Origin: Candidatus Bathyarchaeota archaeon
GTDB lineage: Archaea; Thermoproteota; Bathyarchaeia; 40CM-2-53-6
NCBI GenBank assembly: GCA_963726255.1
Contig: CAVSBL010000002.1
Coordinates: 1,024,001-1,088,000 of the forward strand
Direction: 5' to 3'
Length of the DNA stretch: 64,000 bases
Positions 29,997 through 38,539 of this stretch are shown one piece after another; the stretch's first letter is position 1; each line of letters opens with the position of its first letter. Under the pieces are notes generated by a model. It saw only the letters and a list, made by a program, of their open reading frames with translations, was not told the origin of the DNA and searched no databases. The position numbers and the translations under genes are program-made.

Positions 29997-30971
29997 TTGA
30001 AGGAACCATTTTATACGGTCCCGGAGGTAGACCGGCGGGGACCGTACGTGGTAGTGAAGGAACACGTTGTCTACGTGGACGGGGAATGGCACCCGAAATC
30101 TCGTGCGTCAGTTTCCGTTTTCGACCACGGCTTGCTGTACGGTGACGGCGTATTCGAAGGCATCCGAGCATACAACGGAGTCATCTTCCAGTTCAAGGAA
30201 CACCTAGAACGCCTTTACAGTTCCGCAAAATCGATCAGACTCCAAATCCCGCTTCCCCCAGAAGACATGACGCGGGCAGTAGTTGAGACCATCAAAAGAA
30301 ACGGCCTGAAAGACGCCTACATACGTTTGGTTGTCACGAGAGGCGTTGGCGACCTAGGCGTAGATCCGAGGAAGTGCCGAAAGGCTTCGGTAATAATCAT
30401 AACAGAGTACGCGGACCCAGCGTTCGGCGCGATTGCGAAACAGAGGGGAATTTCAGTCATCATCTCGTCGGTTCGACGCGACGCAGTCGACGCCACTACC
30501 CATGAAATAAAATCGCTAAACTATCTGAACAGCGTTCTGGCTAAACTTGAAGCCGTCGATGCTGGCGCAGACGACGCCCTGATGCTAGATCGGAACGGGT
30601 TCGTATCCGAAGCCACGACAACGAACCTCTTCATTGCGAAGAAGGGCGAAATATTCACACCCCCCTCAACTGCCGCCATCCTCTCAGGCGTTACGAGGAA
30701 ACGGATCATCAAGCTGGCAAGAGAATTAGATTACCGGGTCGTCGAGAAAGGGCTTACACCCTACGACGTAACGAACGCTGACGAAGCGTTCCTAACAGGA
30801 ACGTTGTCCGAAGTTGTCCCGCTCGTGAAGGTGAGGGGCATAGAAATCGCCGACGGGAAAGTGGGACCCATAACAAGGAAGATTATGGAAGCATTCGTGA
30901 AAATACGGGCAGATCCCAAGGACGGCCTACCAATTTACCAAGAAACCGAACGAATCATGGCCCGCCGATAG
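29997..30971 (+). CDS. ilvE: Branched-chain amino acid aminotransferase
   Basis: DHGLLYGDGVFEGIRAY, YIRLVVTRG, IKSLNYLN, ILSGVTR, DEAFLTGT. Confidence 0.95.
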   Translation: MKEPFYTVPEVDRRGPYVVVKEHVVYVDGEWHPKSRASVSVFDHGLLYGDGVFEGIRAYNGVIFQFKEHLERLYSSAKSIRLQIPLPPEDMTRAVVETIKRNGLKDAYIRLVVTRGVGDLGVDPRKCRKASVIIITEYADPAFGAIAKQRGISVIISSVRRDAVDATTHEIKSLNYLNSVLAKLEAVDAGADDALMLDRNGFVSEATTTNLFIAKKGEIFTPPSTAAILSGVTRKRIIKLARELDYRVVEKGLTPYDVTNADEAFLTGTLSEVVPLVKVRGIEIADGKVGPITRKIMEAFVKIRADPKDGLPIYQETERIMARR

Positions 30972-31038
30972 GAACAAACCACAGAAGCAACCCTCAGCCG
31001 TTCTTAGCGACGACGCAACACCAGTTCCATTAGGCGCT

Positions 31039-31088
31039 GGTTCTGTTAAGTTGACGGTTCATCGGTTCTGCTAGAGTTACTCAGAACC
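31039..31088. mobile_element. 50-bp IS6-type remnant/mini element
   Basis: Ends GGTTCTG...CAGAACC are inverted; left flank TAGGCGCT (31031-38), right flank TAGGCGC (31089-95). Confidence 0.6.
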
Positions 31089-31182
31089 TAGGCGCGGCTT
31101 TGTTGCGTCCTTGGGACACGAGCAAGGGCGTTGCAAAGTGGGACATGGCTTAATGCGGCACTTAAATCCCTATCGGGAGTGA

Positions 31183-32061
31183 ATGTTAGGCATGAAAATC
31201 CGAGATTGGGTAAAGCGGATTTTGTACTCGATACCCACCGCGATAATCACCCTCGCATCGCTGAACGAGTTGCTGGCGCGAACTCCTCAATTGCCGAGTG
31301 GAGTAACATTGTATAATTTAGCTCTTGTTGCCCTAGTGGGTGTTTTTGCATTTCCTCTTTGGATTGCCTACCAGCTAGGCATTTGGCGAAACAAGAAACG
31401 CTCAGGCACTGTGCTCAAGGGGAGTCCGCCACCTGAAGCGCCTAAGTATGCACTTCCTGAACATCCGACACGAATTAGAGTCGAGAAAAAGGTCTTTGAA
31501 AATCAAGATGTGTACATTGATGGTCACAGTTGGATAGATTGTAAATTCATAAAGTGCAACATAATCGCGGAACGAGGCGATTTCGACCTTGTCTCCAACT
31601 CATTTGATGGCTGTCGGCTGTCAGTTAAAGGTCCAGCGGAAGGCATCATCAGACTGGCAAAAGGCTTCTTCCCCGAGCTTCCTGTCATAGAGCCTACCAT
31701 CAGAGCGAAACCCGACCTTCCGCCAAAAACGGAGCCGAACCTAACATATCTGAAGTTAGGATTCCAAGCCGCAGTGAGACAGAATTTGCGTGAAATAGAG
31801 TCAAAGCTCAGCTTCGAACACCCAAAGCCGATTCATTTTAAGTCTTGGAACGAGACAGAATCGGACATGAAGAAGCAACTAATTGACAACGAGAATGTTT
31901 ACGAGATTGTAGAGAAAATTGCGGCCGTATTGAATGAATGGAATAATGACTTAGATAGAGCCTCTCTCTTAATGCTCGAACCTGATTCGAAGATATTCCT
32001 GTACATTCAAAGCTGCAAGAAGTACTATGCAAAGTTGACAGAGATCGGTTTTCTGAGTTAG
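31183..32061 (+). CDS. Cargo membrane protein: two N-terminal TMs, short beta-rich domain, helical C-terminus
   Basis: 292 aa ORF inside element B; no recognised family. Confidence 0.7.
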   Translation: MLGMKIRDWVKRILYSIPTAIITLASLNELLARTPQLPSGVTLYNLALVALVGVFAFPLWIAYQLGIWRNKKRSGTVLKGSPPPEAPKYALPEHPTRIRVEKKVFENQDVYIDGHSWIDCKFIKCNIIAERGDFDLVSNSFDGCRLSVKGPAEGIIRLAKGFFPELPVIEPTIRAKPDLPPKTEPNLTYLKLGFQAAVRQNLREIESKLSFEHPKPIHFKSWNETESDMKKQLIDNENVYEIVEKIAAVLNEWNNDLDRASLLMLEPDSKIFLYIQSCKKYYAKLTEIGFLS

Positions 32062-32204
32062 GGGGTATCTTTCCCCTTGAAGTACTCGCCTAGTACGGCT
32101 CTTACCGCTTCAGGTATGGATTCTAGCTTACGGGCTTTTCGTTCTTGGTCCAGTGCTTTTGCCATGTCAGATGACATGGCTACCATTATTTTGTTGATTG
32201 CCAA
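32058..32204 (-). CDS. Small ribbon-helix-helix (CopG-like) protein, 48 aa, absent from the ORF track
   Basis: Hand translation: MAINKIMVAMSSDMAKALDQERKARKLESIPEAVRAVLGEYFKGKDTP. Confidence 0.65.
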   Translation of the reverse strand: MAINKIMVAMSSDMAKALDQERKARKLESIPEAVRAVLGEYFKGKDTP

Positions 32205-32239
32205 GTTGGACTCGCTACCATTGTATAGCGATATCAACC

Positions 32240-32442
32240 GTCACGGGCGAGAGTCTCCGCAACGTGCAGAAGTTCTTACGGTTGCAAGGTGTCGAAGTTC
32301 ATTACACGACTATTCATCGTTGGATTCAGAAGTATATGAAAATCATGGGTCGATACTTGGCAAATGCAACCGCAAGTTGGCAACACTTGGAGAGCTGATG
32401 AACTATTCCTCAAAGTCAGAGGCGACAAGAATAGGAACTGAT
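32240..32442 (+). pseudogene. IS6-family transposase N-terminal fragment
   Basis: GESLRNVQKFLRLQGVEVHYTTIHRWIQKY, then after a frameshift GNTWRADELFLKVRG (first catalytic Asp), then stop. Confidence 0.85.
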
Positions 32443-32448
32443 TGAATT

Positions 32449-33012
32449 TTGACAACAGTGCTTGATTTTTTCCTAGAACTCGCAGCGGTTTTTCTCGGTG
32501 TATTGGGAGCCTTTGAGTTGGATAACTATCGTGAAACAAAGGCTGAGGACAAAGAGCGTGTAAGACTTTTGGGATTGATTAGTCGCGAAGTTGATTCAAA
32601 CAATGGCATACTCATTGGCATGTCGCGAGAGGAGGATGCTGCTTTTGGCGTTCCTAACGCTCGACCGATGCGAAATATCTGGGATGGAATTACCAGTAAG
32701 CTTGCTATTCTGAGAAACGATGAACTACTTGAAGAGGCGACTATGCTATATTGGGATTTGGCTAATCTTGATGGAATGCTGGACATCTATCGAGATTATG
32801 CTGGCCGATACCAATACGCGAGTTCAGAAGAAAAAGTGAGGTTGGGACCTATCCTATTTATCCATCGTACTCATTATGTAGACTACATTAAGAACGAAGC
32901 TCTCCCCCAGATCACTATAGTGCGAAAGCTCATTGATGCGGAACTTTGGCGTGAAAAGAGTAATCGTGTCCCGAAAAGCAACACTGAGGGCGAGAAAACG
33001 GCTGTCCAATAG
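32449..33012 (+). CDS. Cargo protein: N-terminal TM plus helical domain
   Basis: 187 aa; AVFLGVLGAF...RLLGLISREVDSN; stop codon abuts the IS6-like end. Confidence 0.75.
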   Translation: MTTVLDFFLELAAVFLGVLGAFELDNYRETKAEDKERVRLLGLISREVDSNNGILIGMSREEDAAFGVPNARPMRNIWDGITSKLAILRNDELLEEATMLYWDLANLDGMLDIYRDYAGRYQYASSEEKVRLGPILFIHRTHYVDYIKNEALPQITIVRKLIDAELWREKSNRVPKSNTEGEKTAVQ

Positions 33013-33128
33013 ATGCAACAGAACCCTAGGGGGATTGGGAGGCCTGTCCCGAACCTGCAAAAGCACCCTAGGCGCTAAGAATTTATACCGGGTTGTTACT
33101 TGAGGTAACAAAATAGGATGCATCAAAC

Positions 33129-34011
33129 ATGGTGTGGACATTCATCAAAACAACCCTCCTAATCGGGTTTCTAACGGGTATCCTCTTCGTAATCGCATAC
33201 CTGTTAGGCCTCTCGCCGATCCTTGCACTTGGCTTCGCCGCATTCATGAACCTCATAATCTATTGGTTCAGCGACAAGTTCGTCCTACGTATGGGCGGCG
33301 CCAAGCTCGTAACCGAAGAAGAGGCGCCCCGTGTATGCGGCCCTGAGGAGGCTTACGGCGGAAACTGGAACCGCGATGCCAAAGGTCGCGCTGGTGAACA
33401 GCCCAATCCCGAACGCATTCGCAACCGGACGCAGCCCTAACAACGCTACGGTTGCCGTTCACACAAGTCTGCTTAGCATCGTGAACGACGAAGAACTGGA
33501 AGCCGTGCTCGCACATGAGTTGACGCATGTTAGGAACTGGGACATGTTGACCACCACGATTGTGGCGACGGTTGCAGGCGCGATCACCTACCTCGCCCAA
33601 TGGGGATGGCTCTTCGGCGGCGTTTACGGATATTCCGGAGGTAGCCGGGACCGACAACAAGGAAACATCATCGGGCTCCTCCTCATGATGATTCTCGCCC
33701 CAATCGCCGCAATGCTGGTACAGCTTGCGGTCTCAAGGACCCGTGAGTACTCAGCTGATGAGGGCGGCGCCAAGATATCAGGTAACCCAATGGCGTTGGC
33801 TAGCGCACTCGAGAAAATAGATACCTATGCGAAGCAAAGGCCTACCCGTAGCAAGACGAACACCGCAATGTCTTCCCTCTACATAATCAACCCGTTCCAT
33901 GGTTCGTTCGTGGCCGAACTTTTCTCAACCCACCCTTCAACTGAGAAGCGCATCGCCCGACTAGAACAGATAGCTGAAAGGATGGGTACCGGGCGCTACT
34001 ACCCACGCTAG
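33129..34011 (+). CDS. htpX: Zinc metalloprotease HtpX (1-bp frameshift near 33333)
   Basis: KTTLL...YWFSDKFVL then PNAFATGR, AHELTH, SRTREYSAD, FSTHP. Confidence 0.95.
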
Positions 34012-34152
34012 ACGCAAGGGCAACTGTATGTCACCCCTCCCCACACAGAATTACACGACACGGCTCTGCTAACTTGAATGGGGGGTAGCTGCGGATTTTG
34101 TAAATGTTAACTTCTGGGGGGTCATCGACGAATGAGTCTGGTAACTTGTAGC

Positions 34153-34782
34153 TCAAGCCACCAGTGATTCCGAAGGAGCTGGAATTTCTATCTCCGGAAG
34201 AGTGCTCTTAAGCGAAAGTCGGATATGATTTGGAAGGCTCTCAATGGCATCTTTAGCACGTTTCAGCAACGGACACGATCCATCTATGATTGTCTTATCG
34301 AACTCAATTACACGGTCTTTGTAGTCCGAAAGTGAAATGCTCGTTGTTCTGAACAACTCCCGACCCTCCAAATTGGAGTTCATCATCGCCATATTGGTGT
34401 ATAACAGAATCCACACCTTGAGATTCTCTTGTGTAACGTACTTGAGGAGGTTTTCGGCCTTTGCTAAAGTCCATCCGTCCATTGAAAGACGAGGCGGGGT
34501 GGTGACATACATCTTTCCCTCATCTGAAATAGCAATCTCATCCTGCATCATCTTTTGAATTGTGTCAACGCGTAGGAGATTTTCCGCGGTCTCTATTGCG
34601 AGCAGGGTTAGAATGCGATCCTTCTGCCGCTTCTCCCGTTGCCAACCCTTGTATGAATCCCAAGCAGCAAAAAGAAGAAAGCCAATCAATGCACCGATAA
34701 ATGCACCAAGTAGCGCGTAGAATGCCTCGGGAGTCAAGCCATAGATTACTGTCGTATGGGTCGCATTTTGAAGAATATACAA
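34153..34782 (-). CDS. Cargo protein: N-terminal TM plus helical domain
   Basis: ALLGAFIGALIGF...RILTLLAIETAEN...PRLSMDGW. Confidence 0.75.
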   Translation of the reverse strand: MYILQNATHTTVIYGLTPEAFYALLGAFIGALIGFLLFAAWDSYKGWQREKRQKDRILTLLAIETAENLLRVDTIQKMMQDEIAISDEGKMYVTTPPRLSMDGWTLAKAENLLKYVTQENLKVWILLYTNMAMMNSNLEGRELFRTTSISLSDYKDRVIEFDKTIIDGSCPLLKRAKDAIESLPNHIRLSLKSTLPEIEIPAPSESLVA

Positions 34783-34814
34783 GATTCAGCGGGAATTCTT
34801 TGAAGCTTTCCTTA

Positions 34815-35360
34815 TTATTGTTTCTTGAGTGGCGGGGGCTTCTTAAGTAGTTCAAGGAGCTTTGGTTTAAGCTGGAAAAGTTCGTTGGTAATCAGCTGAT
34901 GAACTTCATCAATCTTGGCAATCATCGGCTCACTAACAGTTGTTCGTTCATCATAAGGAACGCTTGTCATTTCTGATTCGTAATAATGAATCCAATTATT
35001 CTTCTCGTGCATGTGTGAATAGAGTTTCCTCAATTCGATTTGCAAGTTCTCTTCCAGAAGCGCTGTTAAACCCTCATGCCGGAATCGCTTGTAAGCGTCC
35101 ATCTCAAGCGGTAGCCACTTATCGACGGACTGGTGTTGCTGGTTCTGTTCAACTTCCCCCAACAGGTCAGTAAGACACTGTTTCCAAAGTCGTTCCTCTT
35201 GCTGAGCGCCGCGTCTATCTTCGTCAGCTTTTTGCATTCTCCACGAATAGCGTGTGGTCAACCATGATCCAAAGAATCCGAGCACTGAACCAATAACGAG
35301 GAAAACAATTGCTCCTAAATTACTTACAAGCCAACCCATTACGTGATCCGCTAACGCCAA
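34815..35360 (-). CDS. Cargo protein: N-terminal TM plus helical domain
   Basis: VIGSVLGFFGSW...LTDLLGEVEQN...LPLEMDAY. Confidence 0.75.
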   Translation of the reverse strand: MALADHVMGWLVSNLGAIVFLVIGSVLGFFGSWLTTRYSWRMQKADEDRRGAQQEERLWKQCLTDLLGEVEQNQQHQSVDKWLPLEMDAYKRFRHEGLTALLEENLQIELRKLYSHMHEKNNWIHYYESEMTSVPYDERTTVSEPMIAKIDEVHQLITNELFQLKPKLLELLKKPPPLKKQ

Positions 35361-35372
35361 AGAATTCTCGAC

Positions 35373-35906
35373 TCAGGTGTGCTTGTGTAAGGTTGTTTGC
35401 TGCAACAGCCGTTGTTTCTTCCTTTCCGTGTCAGCTTTAGACGGTTTCCTGAACGTCACATTAACAGCGACTACCGCAGCGGGATAGTCAATCTTCCGAC
35501 CTTGTAATAGGTATGCTATTGTAAAGATTTGAATACGTGGGTACTTCTTTCCACTTAACTCACTGGCGACATAAAATCCAGCTGATGCTGCCTCAGTTTT
35601 CGTGGGAGTTGTCGGAGCTTCAAGGGTGATGAATGCGTCTATCGCAGCCTTTTCTCTTTCCACAACGCCTCGTAGGTCGCGAACTTGGGACACACCAACA
35701 CCGCCAGACTTGACTGAGAACACTATCTGGTCAACGGTGACTGTCTTAGTATCAAGCAAAAAGTAGAGACGGCCGTCGATTCCCTTGTCGGCTCCTTTCT
35801 TTATCTGACCAGTCGGCCTTGCGCCGACGAGTCCGAGAGCCCAACATTGGAACTGATACTCATCTTGTTTCGCTAACGCTTCCGCGTCTGGTAGAGATGT
35901 TGGTCG
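35373..35906 (-). pseudogene. Mrr-like restriction endonuclease C-terminal domain, 5'-truncated (usually fused to a DNA methyltransferase)
   Basis: YQFQCWA, KKGADKGIDG, SVKSG..VRDLRGVVERE, FITLE, YPRIQI; residues upstream of about 35906 are antisense transposase. Confidence 0.75.
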
Positions 35907-36382
35907 AACAGTGGCGGATGCACGAGCAGCATTCAAAGAAGCAAAAGCTGTAGCCAAGACAGACGCACGCCTTCTACTGACTGATGCACGCCTTCTACTG
36001 ACTGATGCACGCCTTCTACTGACTGATGCACGCCTTCTACTGACTGATGGCTTGCTCTCTTATGGTCCAGCAGCGGAAAAGGAATTTCCAAATGCGGTAC
36101 ACGTTTCAGGGATTGGCATTCAGGGACGGATGAACAATAATCGCATGGAACGCTACCACGGCACATTCAAGGAACGCAGCAAGGTCATCCGAGCAATAAA
36201 GAAACCAGACTCCTTTCGTTGAAGGTCAACGAATCCAATACGACTACCTACGCCCACACACAGCCCTAGACGGCGGAACTCCCGCACAAGCCGCTGGAAT
36301 CGAACTAGGCATAACAGGGAACAAGTGGGAATCTCTCATCAAGAAAGCTGCCAAAAACCCGACTCAAAAAGCGAAACCTTAA
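35902..36382 (+). pseudogene. IS6-family transposase C-terminal fragment
   Basis: DARAAFKEA, LLTDGLLSY, NNNRMERYHGTFKER, frameshift, then YDYLRPHTALDGGTPAQAAGI. Confidence 0.88.
35962..36045 (+). repeat. 4 x 21-bp tandem repeat GA(C/T)GCACGCCTTCTACTGACT
   Basis: Units start at 35962, 35983, 36004 and 36025; encodes (DARLLLT)x4. Confidence 0.97.
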
Positions 36383-36429
36383 CCATCCACGCTCATAATC
36401 CATTAATCTCAATTTCTTGGATAGATTTG

Positions 36430-37071
36430 ATGAGAAACATGTCTAATAGGAAAACCGCGGAGCTTACGCTACATGTCAATCTTAAGCCTACAACTGCGTT
36501 GCCGTCGAAAGCCCTAACGGCTTTTTGGCGGAAAGTGCTAGATGTAGACTTTAGAAGTGCGATTGGCAGACCGAAAACGGATCACGTAAGTAGCGGCTCA
36601 ACCGGTGAATCACATGTCCTATACACTTTCGGAACTATACAGATCGCTCTCTACAGTCGTGGGGATGCGACTATTGAGGATGAGGAATTCGTACCTGGCC
36701 ATAGCGCGATGATTCAACGAATTGTGAATGCGATACTTCAAACGATTGCTCAAGCCGCGAACAAGCGTGTTTACATGCAGGTAGATGCCTACTTGGAAGC
36801 TGTCCTATTAAGAAAAGCTATTGGACAATTTCTACTTCGAAATGTGCGGTTTAGTCCGACAACACGATTCATCAAGCTCTTCGCACCCGCCAAAATCGTA
36901 AGCTTTATGCTCAAAATTTCGAATAATTTGAGCATAGCCTTTGTCGCACCAAACCACTTGGACTTCATTTACCTCGACAGGATTTCAATGGGAACGAACC
37001 GAAAGGCATTTGTTTCTAAGTTGGTGGGAACAGGCATGAAACACCTGAAATCTCTGGATAGGCGAGTATGA
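36430..37071 (+). CDS. Hypothetical cargo protein
   Basis: Long ORF; start trimmed to after the transposase stop. Confidence 0.65.
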   Translation: MRNMSNRKTAELTLHVNLKPTTALPSKALTAFWRKVLDVDFRSAIGRPKTDHVSSGSTGESHVLYTFGTIQIALYSRGDATIEDEEFVPGHSAMIQRIVNAILQTIAQAANKRVYMQVDAYLEAVLLRKAIGQFLLRNVRFSPTTRFIKLFAPAKIVSFMLKISNNLSIAFVAPNHLDFIYLDRISMGTNRKAFVSKLVGTGMKHLKSLDRRV

Positions 37072-37448
37072 TGCGCTCTAGTCAGATTCATTCGGCTTTC
37101 ATCAATCGTTTGACAGGGTCTTTCCCTGATAGTCTTGATCATTTCTACCCAGATGCACGGCGCATTTTTCCCGACCTACCCATTAGAGTTCACGTTGCAA
37201 CGGCCGTTACTCTCGAAGAAAGGCTCGTTAGGCACTTGAGGATGAGTTGGAAAAATGAACGAAACACTTTCGGTTTCGATATTGTCGATGAGGATTACTC
37301 GGCAGTGGAATCTTACCTCCGTCGAGCTTTCAAAAACAAAGCTTCGATGTACGTAAGTGATGTGGCTGATGCATTGGGACTAGAATATGCTATCGTTCGA
37401 GAGATTATCGCTCAAATGATTAAACAAGGGAAGTTGAAAACGAAGTGA
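37068..37448 (+). CDS. Cargo protein with C-terminal winged-HTH-like segment
   Basis: MYVSDVADALGLEYAIVREIIAQMIKQGKL; ATGA overlap with the upstream gene. Confidence 0.65.
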   Translation: MMRSSQIHSAFINRLTGSFPDSLDHFYPDARRIFPDLPIRVHVATAVTLEERLVRHLRMSWKNERNTFGFDIVDEDYSAVESYLRRAFKNKASMYVSDVADALGLEYAIVREIIAQMIKQGKLKTK

Positions 37449-37651
37449 GCGAACTTACCTATCACGACAAACAGAACGACGCCATTAAGGGTGATAAGAT
37501 AATTCTTGAGGCACGAAAGATCAAGCTTTCCACAAAGCCGATCAAAGGAAGCCACGCTCACAAAGCCCAACACGCAGAGGGTCGACACAACGCCATTGCA
37601 TGGGTAGATATTGAAATTTACCCAACTGGGCAATTCAAACTAGAGGGTTGA
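37445..37651 (+). CDS. Small hypothetical cargo protein, possibly truncated by the IR
   Basis: GTGA overlap; stop TGA lies inside the inner IR. Confidence 0.5.
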   Translation: MSELTYHDKQNDAIKGDKIILEARKIKLSTKPIKGSHAHKAQHAEGRHNAIAWVDIEIYPTGQFKLEG

Positions 37652-37840
37652 CCCCCCCGAAGTTACCGATACCTTAAGCCCCCAGATTAGTTACCAGAAC
37701 TCACGACACCCCCCACCAGGGGGGTCCCCCGTTGAGTGAGAGGGTGGATCCACCCATCTTGGGGTGGAGCCAAACGGTGCCAAACGAGGGTAACTCTCGC
37801 CTCATTTTACGCCTCTATCCCCTAACCCGAAGCGTTCCGA

Positions 37841-38539
37841 TTACCCTTCGAGAACAGCCACCGCTCGAACAGGTGAAGTCGGGCCGTTCACACTGAGTGG
37901 AAAGGCAATGAGCCGAAACCTCGACTCCTGAACTTTATTCAAGTTGCGAAGGTTTTCCAAAACTAGAATTCCCGCATGCATCAATATTGAACGTGCCGGT
38001 AATTCCTTGCTGCCCTCCGCGTCCAGGCTGGGGGTGTCAATCGCAACGAGCGATGGTCGTTTGAATTCAAGAAATTCTGCACCATTCACACTCAGGTAAG
38101 CGTGTTGCGCAATGGCCGTGGTGCGCGCGGAATCACCCCAGCCGGTATGAAGAACAACAGCCTCACCCTCGCGCAACGCCAACCCTGCACTCTCTTCCGC
38201 GCCCTCCAAGTCTTCGTCATCGATCGGTTCCCCATCCTTCTTGCTCGTCAGGTCCAGAAGCACCGCTTGTACCATGAAGGAATCTAAAGCGAATCGGTCA
38301 AGTTTCTTCCCGTTACGGATGAGGTACGCAGGAGCTTCAATGTGCGTACCCGCATGGGTATCCTGCAAGACGGTTTCGAGAGGCAACTCGGTAGTGAGGT
38401 CTAGAAGTTTCAAAATGCAATCCTCTGGCTTACCTAGCGCCTTACTGTTCCAAGCAATCATTAAAGCGCTCCCACCAATAGAGCATGGAAAACCGATACG
38501 GCGGTTGATGACATGGCGACAACTGTGCCCCCGGGACAA
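37841..38539 (-). CDS. Cyclase / kynurenine formamidase family protein
   Basis: THAGTHIEAP, LHTGW, IDTPSLD, LENL, SPVRAVA; true start probably downstream. Confidence 0.82.
   Translation of the reverse strand: MSRGHSCRHVINRRIGFPCSIGGSALMIAWNSKALGKPEDCILKLLDLTTELPLETVLQDTHAGTHIEAPAYLIRNGKKLDRFALDSFMVQAVLLDLTSKKDGEPIDDEDLEGAEESAGLALREGEAVVLHTGWGDSARTTAIAQHAYLSVNGAEFLEFKRPSLVAIDTPSLDAEGSKELPARSILMHAGILVLENLRNLNKVQESRFRLIAFPLSVNGPTSPVRAVAVLEG

Follow-up and report, generated by a model that had tools for sequence, protein, structure and literature searches.

The stretch of DNA described here (the window; 64,000 nt, G000:C2:1024001-1088000) comes from the genome of a Candidatus Bathyarchaeota archaeon, and the region of interest extends on both sides of htpX, from ilvE to a cyclase gene, as listed in Table 1. 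Four fossil transposons with passenger genes, all from one archaeal IS6-like family, are preserved in this region. Three of the fossils are stacked head to tail and adjoin the htpX core promoter on its upstream side, and the fourth is an off-promoter insertion in the gap between htpX and the cyclase gene. An earlier note on this DNA, made from its letters without database searches, had described exact 8-bp flanking duplications, a decayed IS6 transposase and AT-richer cargo genes at both loci. It had also proposed that such elements insert at the tips of older elements, which would serve as safe havens and build up cargo in the manner of an integron. The three anatomical claims were borne out, and the choice of target probably has another basis.

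Fossil elements on both sides of htpX

Exact 8-bp direct repeats were confirmed at both loci (octamer copies 2 and 4 on the left, the two target duplications on the right; Table 1), and the inverted-repeat tips at 31096, 33067, 34062 and 37701 touch them. A tblastn search with the intact 377-amino acid (aa) transposase encoded elsewhere in the same genome (C2:1272038-1273168) recovered two transposase remnants in the window, with E values of 1.8e-16 and 9.9e-16. The remnant at the left locus corresponds to aa 155-216 of the intact copy and the one at the right locus to aa 266-375. On the Pfam profile PF13610 the remnants reach only 18 bits, the cut-off being 27. The G+C content of both inserts is 0.42-0.47, compared to 0.51-0.58 in ilvE, htpX and the cyclase gene.

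Table 1. Features of the region between ilvE and the cyclase gene (positions in the window; ORF, open reading frame)
Feature	Position	Strand	Remarks
ilvE	end at 30971		Aminotran_4 (Pfam)
Octamer copy 1	31031-31038		TAGGCGCT; left of the 50-bp remnant
50-bp IS6-like remnant	31039-31088	+	internal deletion, both tips retained; tip 21/24 vs reference ends
Octamer copy 2	31088-31095		CTAGGCGC; starts on the final base of the 50-bp remnant
1930-bp decayed passenger-carrying element	31096-33025	+	two-part ends, two ORFs, transposase remnant
1930-bp element, two-part left end	31096-31149
1930-bp element, ORF	31183-32061		292 aa
1930-bp element, transposase remnant	32243-32426
1930-bp element, ORF	32449-33012		187 aa
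1930-bp element, two-part right end	32966-33025
Octamer copy 3	33026-33033		CTAGGGGG; degenerate, 6/8
34-nt remnant of third element	33034-33067	-	right end only; 18/24 vs reference ends
Octamer copy 4	33068-33075		CTAGGCGC; closest to promoter
htpX core promoter	33082-33109	+	TATA-like octamer 33082-33089; palindrome GTTAC-N5-GTAAC 33095-33109
htpX	33129-34011	+	Peptidase_M48; ATG at 33129; frame broken by 2-bp gap at 33329
Left target duplication	34054-34061		CACGACAC
3640-bp decayed passenger-carrying element	34062-37701	+	second subfamily
3640-bp element, two-part ends	34062-34124 and 37649-37701
3640-bp element, ORFs	34153-34782, 34815-35360, 35373-35957	-	last is Mrr_cat
3640-bp element, 21-nt tandem repeat	35958-36050
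3640-bp element, transposase C-terminal remnant	36046-36358
3640-bp element, ORFs	36433-37071, 37068-37448, 37445-37651	+
Right target duplication	37702-37709		CACGACAC
Cyclase gene	37841-38539	-

At the left locus, three elements form an array next to the htpX promoter, and the target octamer is present there four times. The copy closest to the promoter is followed by TAAGAA and then by the TATA-like TTTATACC, leaving a gap of 6 nt. In the related genome G033, whose htpX is 95% identical, an intact element of 3588 bp lies between ilvE and htpX (L050:2859-6446). This element is bounded by CAGGCGCT on both sides, followed by AAGAA and the htpX TATA box, and it has no second element beside it. 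Its end type and its site are the same as those of the 50-bp remnant in the window, which is colinear with its first ~36 nt and last ~14 nt. The duplication of the second member in the window takes in the last base (C) of the 50-bp remnant. An overlap between a duplication and another element's tip, which had been claimed for both loci, is therefore upheld by G033 on the left.

The 1930-bp element was compared to an intact relative, L061:6306-8520. The left ends are 93% identical over 54 nt and the right ends 83% identical over 35 nt, while the transposase blocks show 84-85% identity to the relative, with about 500 bp lost between blocks. Because the intact relative stops at the equivalent point, the true right end of this element is at 33025. 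A Pfam scan of its 292-aa and 187-aa ORFs gave no hits. Strains in runs X4 and X5 (Logan contigs; two other studies) have both the 50-bp remnant and the 1.9-kb element, including the 292-aa ORF. Their contigs lack exactly 42 nt, which equal the 34-nt remnant plus one octamer, and they have an intact octamer where the window has the degenerate copy. The htpX promoter is free of elements in genomes G015, G011, G001 and G018, and the empty ilvE-htpX spacers span 128-268 bp. In G002 the same promoter bears a 9-kb array with a different octamer.

The right locus holds a single element. Its transposase remnant is 77-80% identical at the DNA level to copies in L053 and L054, and L054 contains an intact relative of 4929 bp with similar ends. 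The element is missing from G014 and G015 and from the X4 and X5 contigs, which jump from 34036 to 37719 with 15 letters between. G033 and an X2 strain have a different element of ~640 bp, with the duplication CCACCAGG, ~10 bp away from this site. Empty and alternative alleles, which the earlier note expected in relatives, were thus found at both loci. No TATA box was found on either flank of the right element. The 19 nt to its left (within 34037-34061), including the octamer, are missing from every empty or alternative allele (L050, X4, X5). The pre-insertion site of the window lineage may have differed, or a donor flank may have arrived with the element. A 21-nt unit, originating from part of the transposase gene, is present in ~4.5 copies at the 5' edge of the transposase remnant.

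An older end abutting the right-locus duplication could not be substantiated. The proposed end matches reference ends at 16/24 positions, which is noise level since shuffled DNA contains thousands of such matches, and its best local alignment to the ends of its own subfamily was equalled by 993 of 2000 shuffles. Nested elements were also rejected as the source of the inner repeats of the right element, given that no matching 8-mers lie beside the inner pair and that intact relatives bear the same second motif.

An archaeal IS6-like family with two-part ends

The family to which these fossils belong is archaeal and IS6-like, with elements of 2-6 kb, two-part inverted ends that start with GG and 8-bp target duplications. 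The transposase of ~377 aa combines a SWIM-like zinc finger, a 4-Cys zinc finger, a helix-turn-helix and a DDE_Tnp_IS240 core. The intact copy in the window's genome scores 61.7 bits on PF13610 and another intact relative 59.9 bits. On the NCBIfam model transpos_IS6 (NF033587, cut-off 125), the copy in the window's genome is barely over the cut-off (125.2), another scores 134.7 and the L061 copy 106.1. The SWIM finger of the copy in the window's genome is borderline, at 19.5 bits with a cut-off of 19.6. A phmmer search of the transposase against the PDB sequences gave no hits.

Elements were sought around full-length transposase genes as inverted repeats flanked by an exact 8-bp repeat. This validated 24 elements in genomes of the same genus (42 full-length hits) and 44 in other archaea (72 hits), giving 68 elements of 2031-6159 bp, which are not compact single-ORF IS6 elements of 700-900 bp. 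The relatives, of up to 81% identity, are titled Bathyarchaeia or Bathyarchaeota, and further relatives were found in Nitrosopumilus, Nitrosocosmicus, Nitrososphaeraceae, Methanoregula, Thermoplasmata and Atabeyarchaeia. The IS6/IS240 DDE match, the 8-bp duplication (in both window inserts and the 68 relatives) and the GG ends place the family with IS6.

Both ends of an element consist of a tip motif and a second copy ~30 nt inward, and this is also seen in intact relatives. Because the ends are two-part, several of the additional IS6-like ends reported in the earlier note are inner repeats; the one at 33044-33067 is a real end, that of the third-element remnant. The tips at 31039, 31096, 33025 and 34062 and those of most relatives have the GG start and a G at position 7. 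The exceptions are the tip at 37701, which begins with AG, and the tip at 33067, which has T at position 7.

One locus, L032, has two copies of a 2644-bp element (L032:5794-8437 and L032:13458-16101) that are 100% identical, inverted and bracket two other elements. Judging from their sequences, these twins hint at replicative intramolecular inversion or transposition, for which this pattern would be expected. In L043 the array octamer is present in both orientations. The four fossils in the window would be immobile unless driven in trans, because none retains a working transposase.

Transposase fragments at the genus loci (L027-L066) are strongly biased toward the 3' end of the gene: 39 of 52 reach the C-terminus (aa >=365) and one of 52 starts at aa <=30. 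This may be due to polar deletion or to better detectability of the C-terminus. The window's genome also has two short transposase-free elements, C2:896495-897017 (523 bp) and C2:48214-49479 (1266 bp), with family-type ends and the exact 8-bp duplications TGGAGGCA and TGCAGTTC.

Passenger genes

Passenger DNA is the rule in this family, since the 1.1-kb transposase gene lies a median of 1219 bp from the left end. The proposal of a passenger-gene transposon subgroup was therefore well founded. Among 29 elements there are 102 non-transposase ORFs of at least 70 aa, as in a passenger-carrying insertion sequence (tIS), and these fall into 91 blastp clusters. Pfam assigned 15 families to the 63 cargo ORFs of at least 110 aa, with one ORF each (NYN, SET, ArsR-type helix-turn-helix, V4R, Mrr_cat and others). 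In the lineage of the left element of the window, the ends and transposase block are 77-93% identical between copies, and the ORFs in the slot between the end and the transposase block (239, 285, 292 and 362 aa) are faintly alike at best. A tblastn search found no paralogues of the cargo ORFs in the window's genome, and the 292-aa ORF and the Mrr-like ORF have almost no relatives among 22 genomes of the same genus.

Two interpretations of the cargo were discarded. One was a single ORF family filling the slot upstream of the transposase gene, for which five pairs were found at E up to 0.01 compared to two with a reversed decoy. The other was a defence island, for which PADLOC gave 11 families, each from one of the 63 cargo ORFs.

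Arrays in an 8-bp register

Ends were located as 24-mers that begin with GG and match any validated end at 19 or more of 24 positions; a threshold of 16/24 proved useless. On the window's own contig, the threshold of >=19 gave 19 ends in the real and five in the shuffled sequence, and >=20 gave 15 and none. In this contig and the genus loci together (2.89 Mb), there are 34 pairs of facing tips less than 200 bp apart, and 28 of them are separated by exactly 8 bp. The gaps of the remaining six are 10, 72, 73, 74, 80 and 82 bp. The loci from other archaea (0.80 Mb), with 184 tips compared to four after shuffling, gave 17 of 18 facing pairs at exactly 8 bp, which brings the pooled count to 45 of 52 close pairs. 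End-adjacent insertions, an excess of which had been anticipated, are thus hugely over-represented. Neighbours within an array are usually different elements. The spacer octamer is constant along one array and differs among arrays.

The arrays are polar. Among 20 TATA-anchored arrays, 18 have a second member, and compared to it the promoter-side member retains clearly more transposase in 13, about as much in four and less in one. In the htpX array, the distal member is the oldest because the 50-bp remnant is shared with G033, and the promoter-side 34-nt remnant is missing from X4 and X5. This array agrees with the general polarity.

Insertion next to promoters

The flanks of the elements were read outward from the duplication, and an octamer matching TTTATATA at 6/8 or better was accepted as TATA-like. 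Of 143 non-redundant flanks, 41 begin with another end. When such flanks were excluded, the TTTATATA-like octamer was found at offset 5 in 13 of 37 flanks from the genus and 21 of 65 from other archaea, compared to 0-2 flanks at each of offsets 8-24. A peak at offset 3 is explained by the 2-nt periodicity of the TTTATATA motif. The commonest target is thus the 8 bp situated 5 nt upstream of a TATA box, not an older end. Many single elements without a neighbouring end sit at this distance, and 21 of 30 distinct arrays terminate at such a TATA box beside the array's own octamer, with the anchoring promoter pointing away from the array.

Spacer positions 2-3 are AA in 32 of 43 promoter clusters, which is like a B recognition element (BRE) and was not a selection criterion. 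ORFs start 20-64 nt past the TATA box, with one at 128 nt. The genes behind the targeted promoters include those for thermosome, Hsp20, HtpX, CDC48, RadA, SufB, SufS and the ribosomal proteins S17e, S24e and P1. The thermosome promoter is targeted in Bathyarchaeia and in one Thermoplasmata genome. In the window's genome, the thermosome, hsp20, htpX and S17e promoters all bear elements or remnants.

Explanations for the stacked insertions

Taken together, the sequence comparisons make it probable that the stacking is due to repeated targeting of the promoter edge. The staggered cut of the transposase would fall on an 8-bp stretch that ends ~5 nt before the TATA box, where the BRE has its upstream edge. 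Duplication of this stretch would restore the promoter edge, so that the promoter would survive and stay targetable, and the next element, of any subfamily, could strike the same 8 bp. Arrays would then grow on the promoter side, their members set apart by one reiterated octamer, and the older members would decay via internal deletion. Repeated hits on the promoter edge would explain the single elements at TATA boxes, the anchoring of the arrays, their polarity and the reiterated octamer. The feature that is recognised would be the promoter edge rather than a resident end, and it could be read either as DNA or through bound TBP/TFB.

A further step is offered only as a tentative suggestion. 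A widespread family of archaeal DDE transposons might pick its target by reading the pre-initiation site, docking on TBP/TFB at the BRE and TATA box, or on that DNA, via its extra zinc fingers, at a single-base distance from the TATA box. Polar arrays anchored at promoters might in this way shuttle hundreds of unrelated passengers among Bathyarchaeia, ammonia-oxidising archaea, methanogens, Thermoplasmata and Asgard archaea. As a separate observation, family searches, with two matches in each open frame, indicate four TBP and two TFB genes in the window's genome, above the minimal archaeal set, which is relevant to any promoter-guided insertion model.

Several points weigh against promoter-edge targeting. 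The thermosome promoter was hit independently in four genomes, at distances of 2, 3, 3 and 5 nt to the TATA box. The register inside arrays is almost always exact and might have to be measured from a resident end. One of the two identical copies in L032 has an end on either side of it in the middle of the array and is 7.6 kb away from the TATA box. A few arrays have no TATA box at their resolved extreme (L085, L068), and about one third to one half of the sites, including that of the right element in the window, are not at a TATA box. The TATA consensus TTTATATA was taken as given rather than derived from these data. Intact members are over-sampled because full-length transposase genes were the starting points for choosing loci, and some loci are orthologous or present in both sets (L049/L099, L027/L125), so the counts are not independent. 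The whole analysis is also computational.

Another possible explanation, and the one closest to the earlier note, is that the transposase binds the end of a resident element and uses the 8 bp next to that tip as its target, which would make older ends safe havens and seeds of arrays. The 8-bp gap in 45 of 52 pairs fits this explanation, since it is tighter than the 2-5 nt scatter at the thermosome promoter. The single base of a resident tip that was duplicated by the second insertion in the window, the identical twin in the middle of the L032 array and the few arrays with no visible TATA box also fit. In addition, the favoured octamer of the GGTAACGT subfamily, TTACGTAA, matches 7/8 bases of end positions 3-10. 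We nevertheless consider resident ends an unlikely target: many lone elements lie at the TATA distance without a neighbouring end, the TATA box anchors 21 of 30 arrays, and a symmetrical choice of ends does not predict the polarity of arrays. A first insertion leaves the promoter-side octamer and everything downstream of it unaltered, so the position can be used again without an end. The right element in the window also has no supported neighbouring end.

Elements might instead insert at random and persist only just upstream of promoters, where they are harmless in a gene-dense genome. The compactness of the genomes and the intact gene and promoter downstream of every anchored insertion are consistent with such selection. 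We regard this as very improbable, because selection cannot yield a peak at a single offset (13/37 and 21/65 at offset 5 compared to 0-2 at offsets 8-24) or an exact 8-bp register, and many other intergenic positions are neutral, such as those in the empty ilvE-htpX spacers.

It is just as improbable that the arrays were built elsewhere or by recombination and arrived as blocks, either through unit transposition via the outer ends or as IS26-like translocatable units joining at a shared copy. In favour of this, exact octamers bound the composite 31096-33067, signs of inversion are present in L032 (identical inverted twins) and L043 (the octamer in both orientations), and the empty alleles lack the 19 nt left of the right element. 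Against it, array neighbours are different elements split by a local octamer with no shared copy, this octamer is specific to the array and equals the copy beside the local TATA box, and the htpX arrays of sister strains differ from each other in single members.

Comparison with known elements

Passages of a review of the IS6 family (PMC7986276) describe elements of ~800 bp, or 700-750 bp in archaea, whose repeats are short and simple; a single member, ISDsp3, is given as carrying passengers. According to parts of another article (PMC6807381), the archaeal members are only distant relatives, and no experiments on them exist. The present family shares several features with the IS6/IS26 family (IS26, IS257 and the archaeal ISfinder members), namely the PF13610/transpos_IS6 DDE transposase, GG ends with mostly G at position 7 and 8-bp duplications. 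The identical inverted twins in L032 also fit the replicative intramolecular transposition of that family. Unlike it, the present elements are 2-6 kb long, always carry passengers and have two-part ends and a precise promoter-edge target, and the transposase has ~140 extra N-terminal residues with two zinc fingers.

The same review, in part, describes the insertion of IS26 next to a resident copy as favoured, with cargo arrays accumulating and no new duplication being made. These translocatable units and the arrays described here are alike in inserting beside a resident copy and in their growing cargo arrays. IS26 partners are identical, with one shared copy and no duplication, whereas here different complete elements, each two-ended, are split by a reiterated 8-bp duplication, so the present arrays are not of the IS26 type. 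Excerpts of a study of aloposons (PMC8813620) describe integration at tRNA genes; they are unrelated to the present family. In a literature search, neither TATA-directed insertion nor in-register arrays turned up for archaeal IS6-like elements; the supplementary insertion sequence tables, which may list members (PMC6563490, PMC11529989), were outside its scope.

Promoter-edge targeting also has parallels among eukaryotic elements. These parallels concern Ty3 and Ty1 at RNA polymerase III genes, TRE5-A, Tf1 and the P elements at Hsp70 promoters, which share with the present family safe-haven insertion, a fixed distance from the region of transcription start and gene-dense genomes. Chaperone promoters are hot spots here too. 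These elements are retroelements or P elements guided by TFIIIB, RNA polymerase III or open chromatin, whereas the present element is a prokaryotic DDE transposon with a putative link to TBP/TFB. Among prokaryotic elements, IS30 targets its own repeats, IS4321/IS5075 target the repeats of the Tn21 family, and Tn7, which has target immunity, targets attTn7. As in the present family, their choice of target is tied to a defined sequence feature and insertion is harmless. To our knowledge, none of them forms in-register arrays of different elements split by a duplication.

The analogy to integrons drawn in the earlier note holds in part. Units stack at one fixed site by a promoter, with the newest unit closest to the promoter. 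Here, however, each unit brings its own DDE transposase and ends and is bounded by transposon ends and duplications, and the anchoring promoter faces away. An integron would have a tyrosine-recombinase integrase with attI and attC sites; none of the 15 families that Pfam assigned to the 63 cargo ORFs is an integrase family, and no search for attC sites was made.

If correct, promoter-edge targeting would be a clear case of safe-haven insertion by a prokaryotic DDE transposon and would provide a testable link between a transposase and the TBP/TFB promoter architecture of archaea. It would explain the variable hot-spot spacers upstream of chaperone and ribosomal-protein genes in these genomes. 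If the pre-initiation site is indeed what is read, Ty3-type targeting would have a counterpart in prokaryotes. A transposase with a fixed insertion distance to the TATA box could also serve as a tool for archaeal genetics. Passengers were found in all 68 validated copies across several archaeal phyla, compared to the statement, in part of a 2019 survey of thaumarchaeal mobile elements (PMC6563490), that passenger-carrying DNA transposons were not detected in archaea.

Minor features of the window

The 2-bp gap that breaks the htpX frame was identified relative to G033. Both bases are present in contigs of all four runs examined, including the probable source run X1, and an assembly error or a minor variant is the probable cause of the frameshift. 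A search of Rfam with E up to 1 gave no matches over 30900-38000. This interval includes a repeat of ~100 nt (37739-37837), likewise without an Rfam match, that has nine more copies on contig C2, with 85-91% identity, and dozens across genomes of the same genus. The repeat could be a miniature inverted-repeat transposable element or an RNA gene.

The palindrome GTTAC-N5-GTAAC lies just downstream of the TATA box in both htpX and hsp20 (L144, C2:1167917 in the window's genome), and the thermosome promoters (L044, L049, L061, L062) carry TTTAC-N5-GTAAC. There are eight exact matches to GTTAC-N5-GTAAC in the genome compared to 1-5 in shuffles, and the palindrome may be a heat-shock operator. Its pentamers are also present in the ends of the GGTAACGTTAC subfamily.

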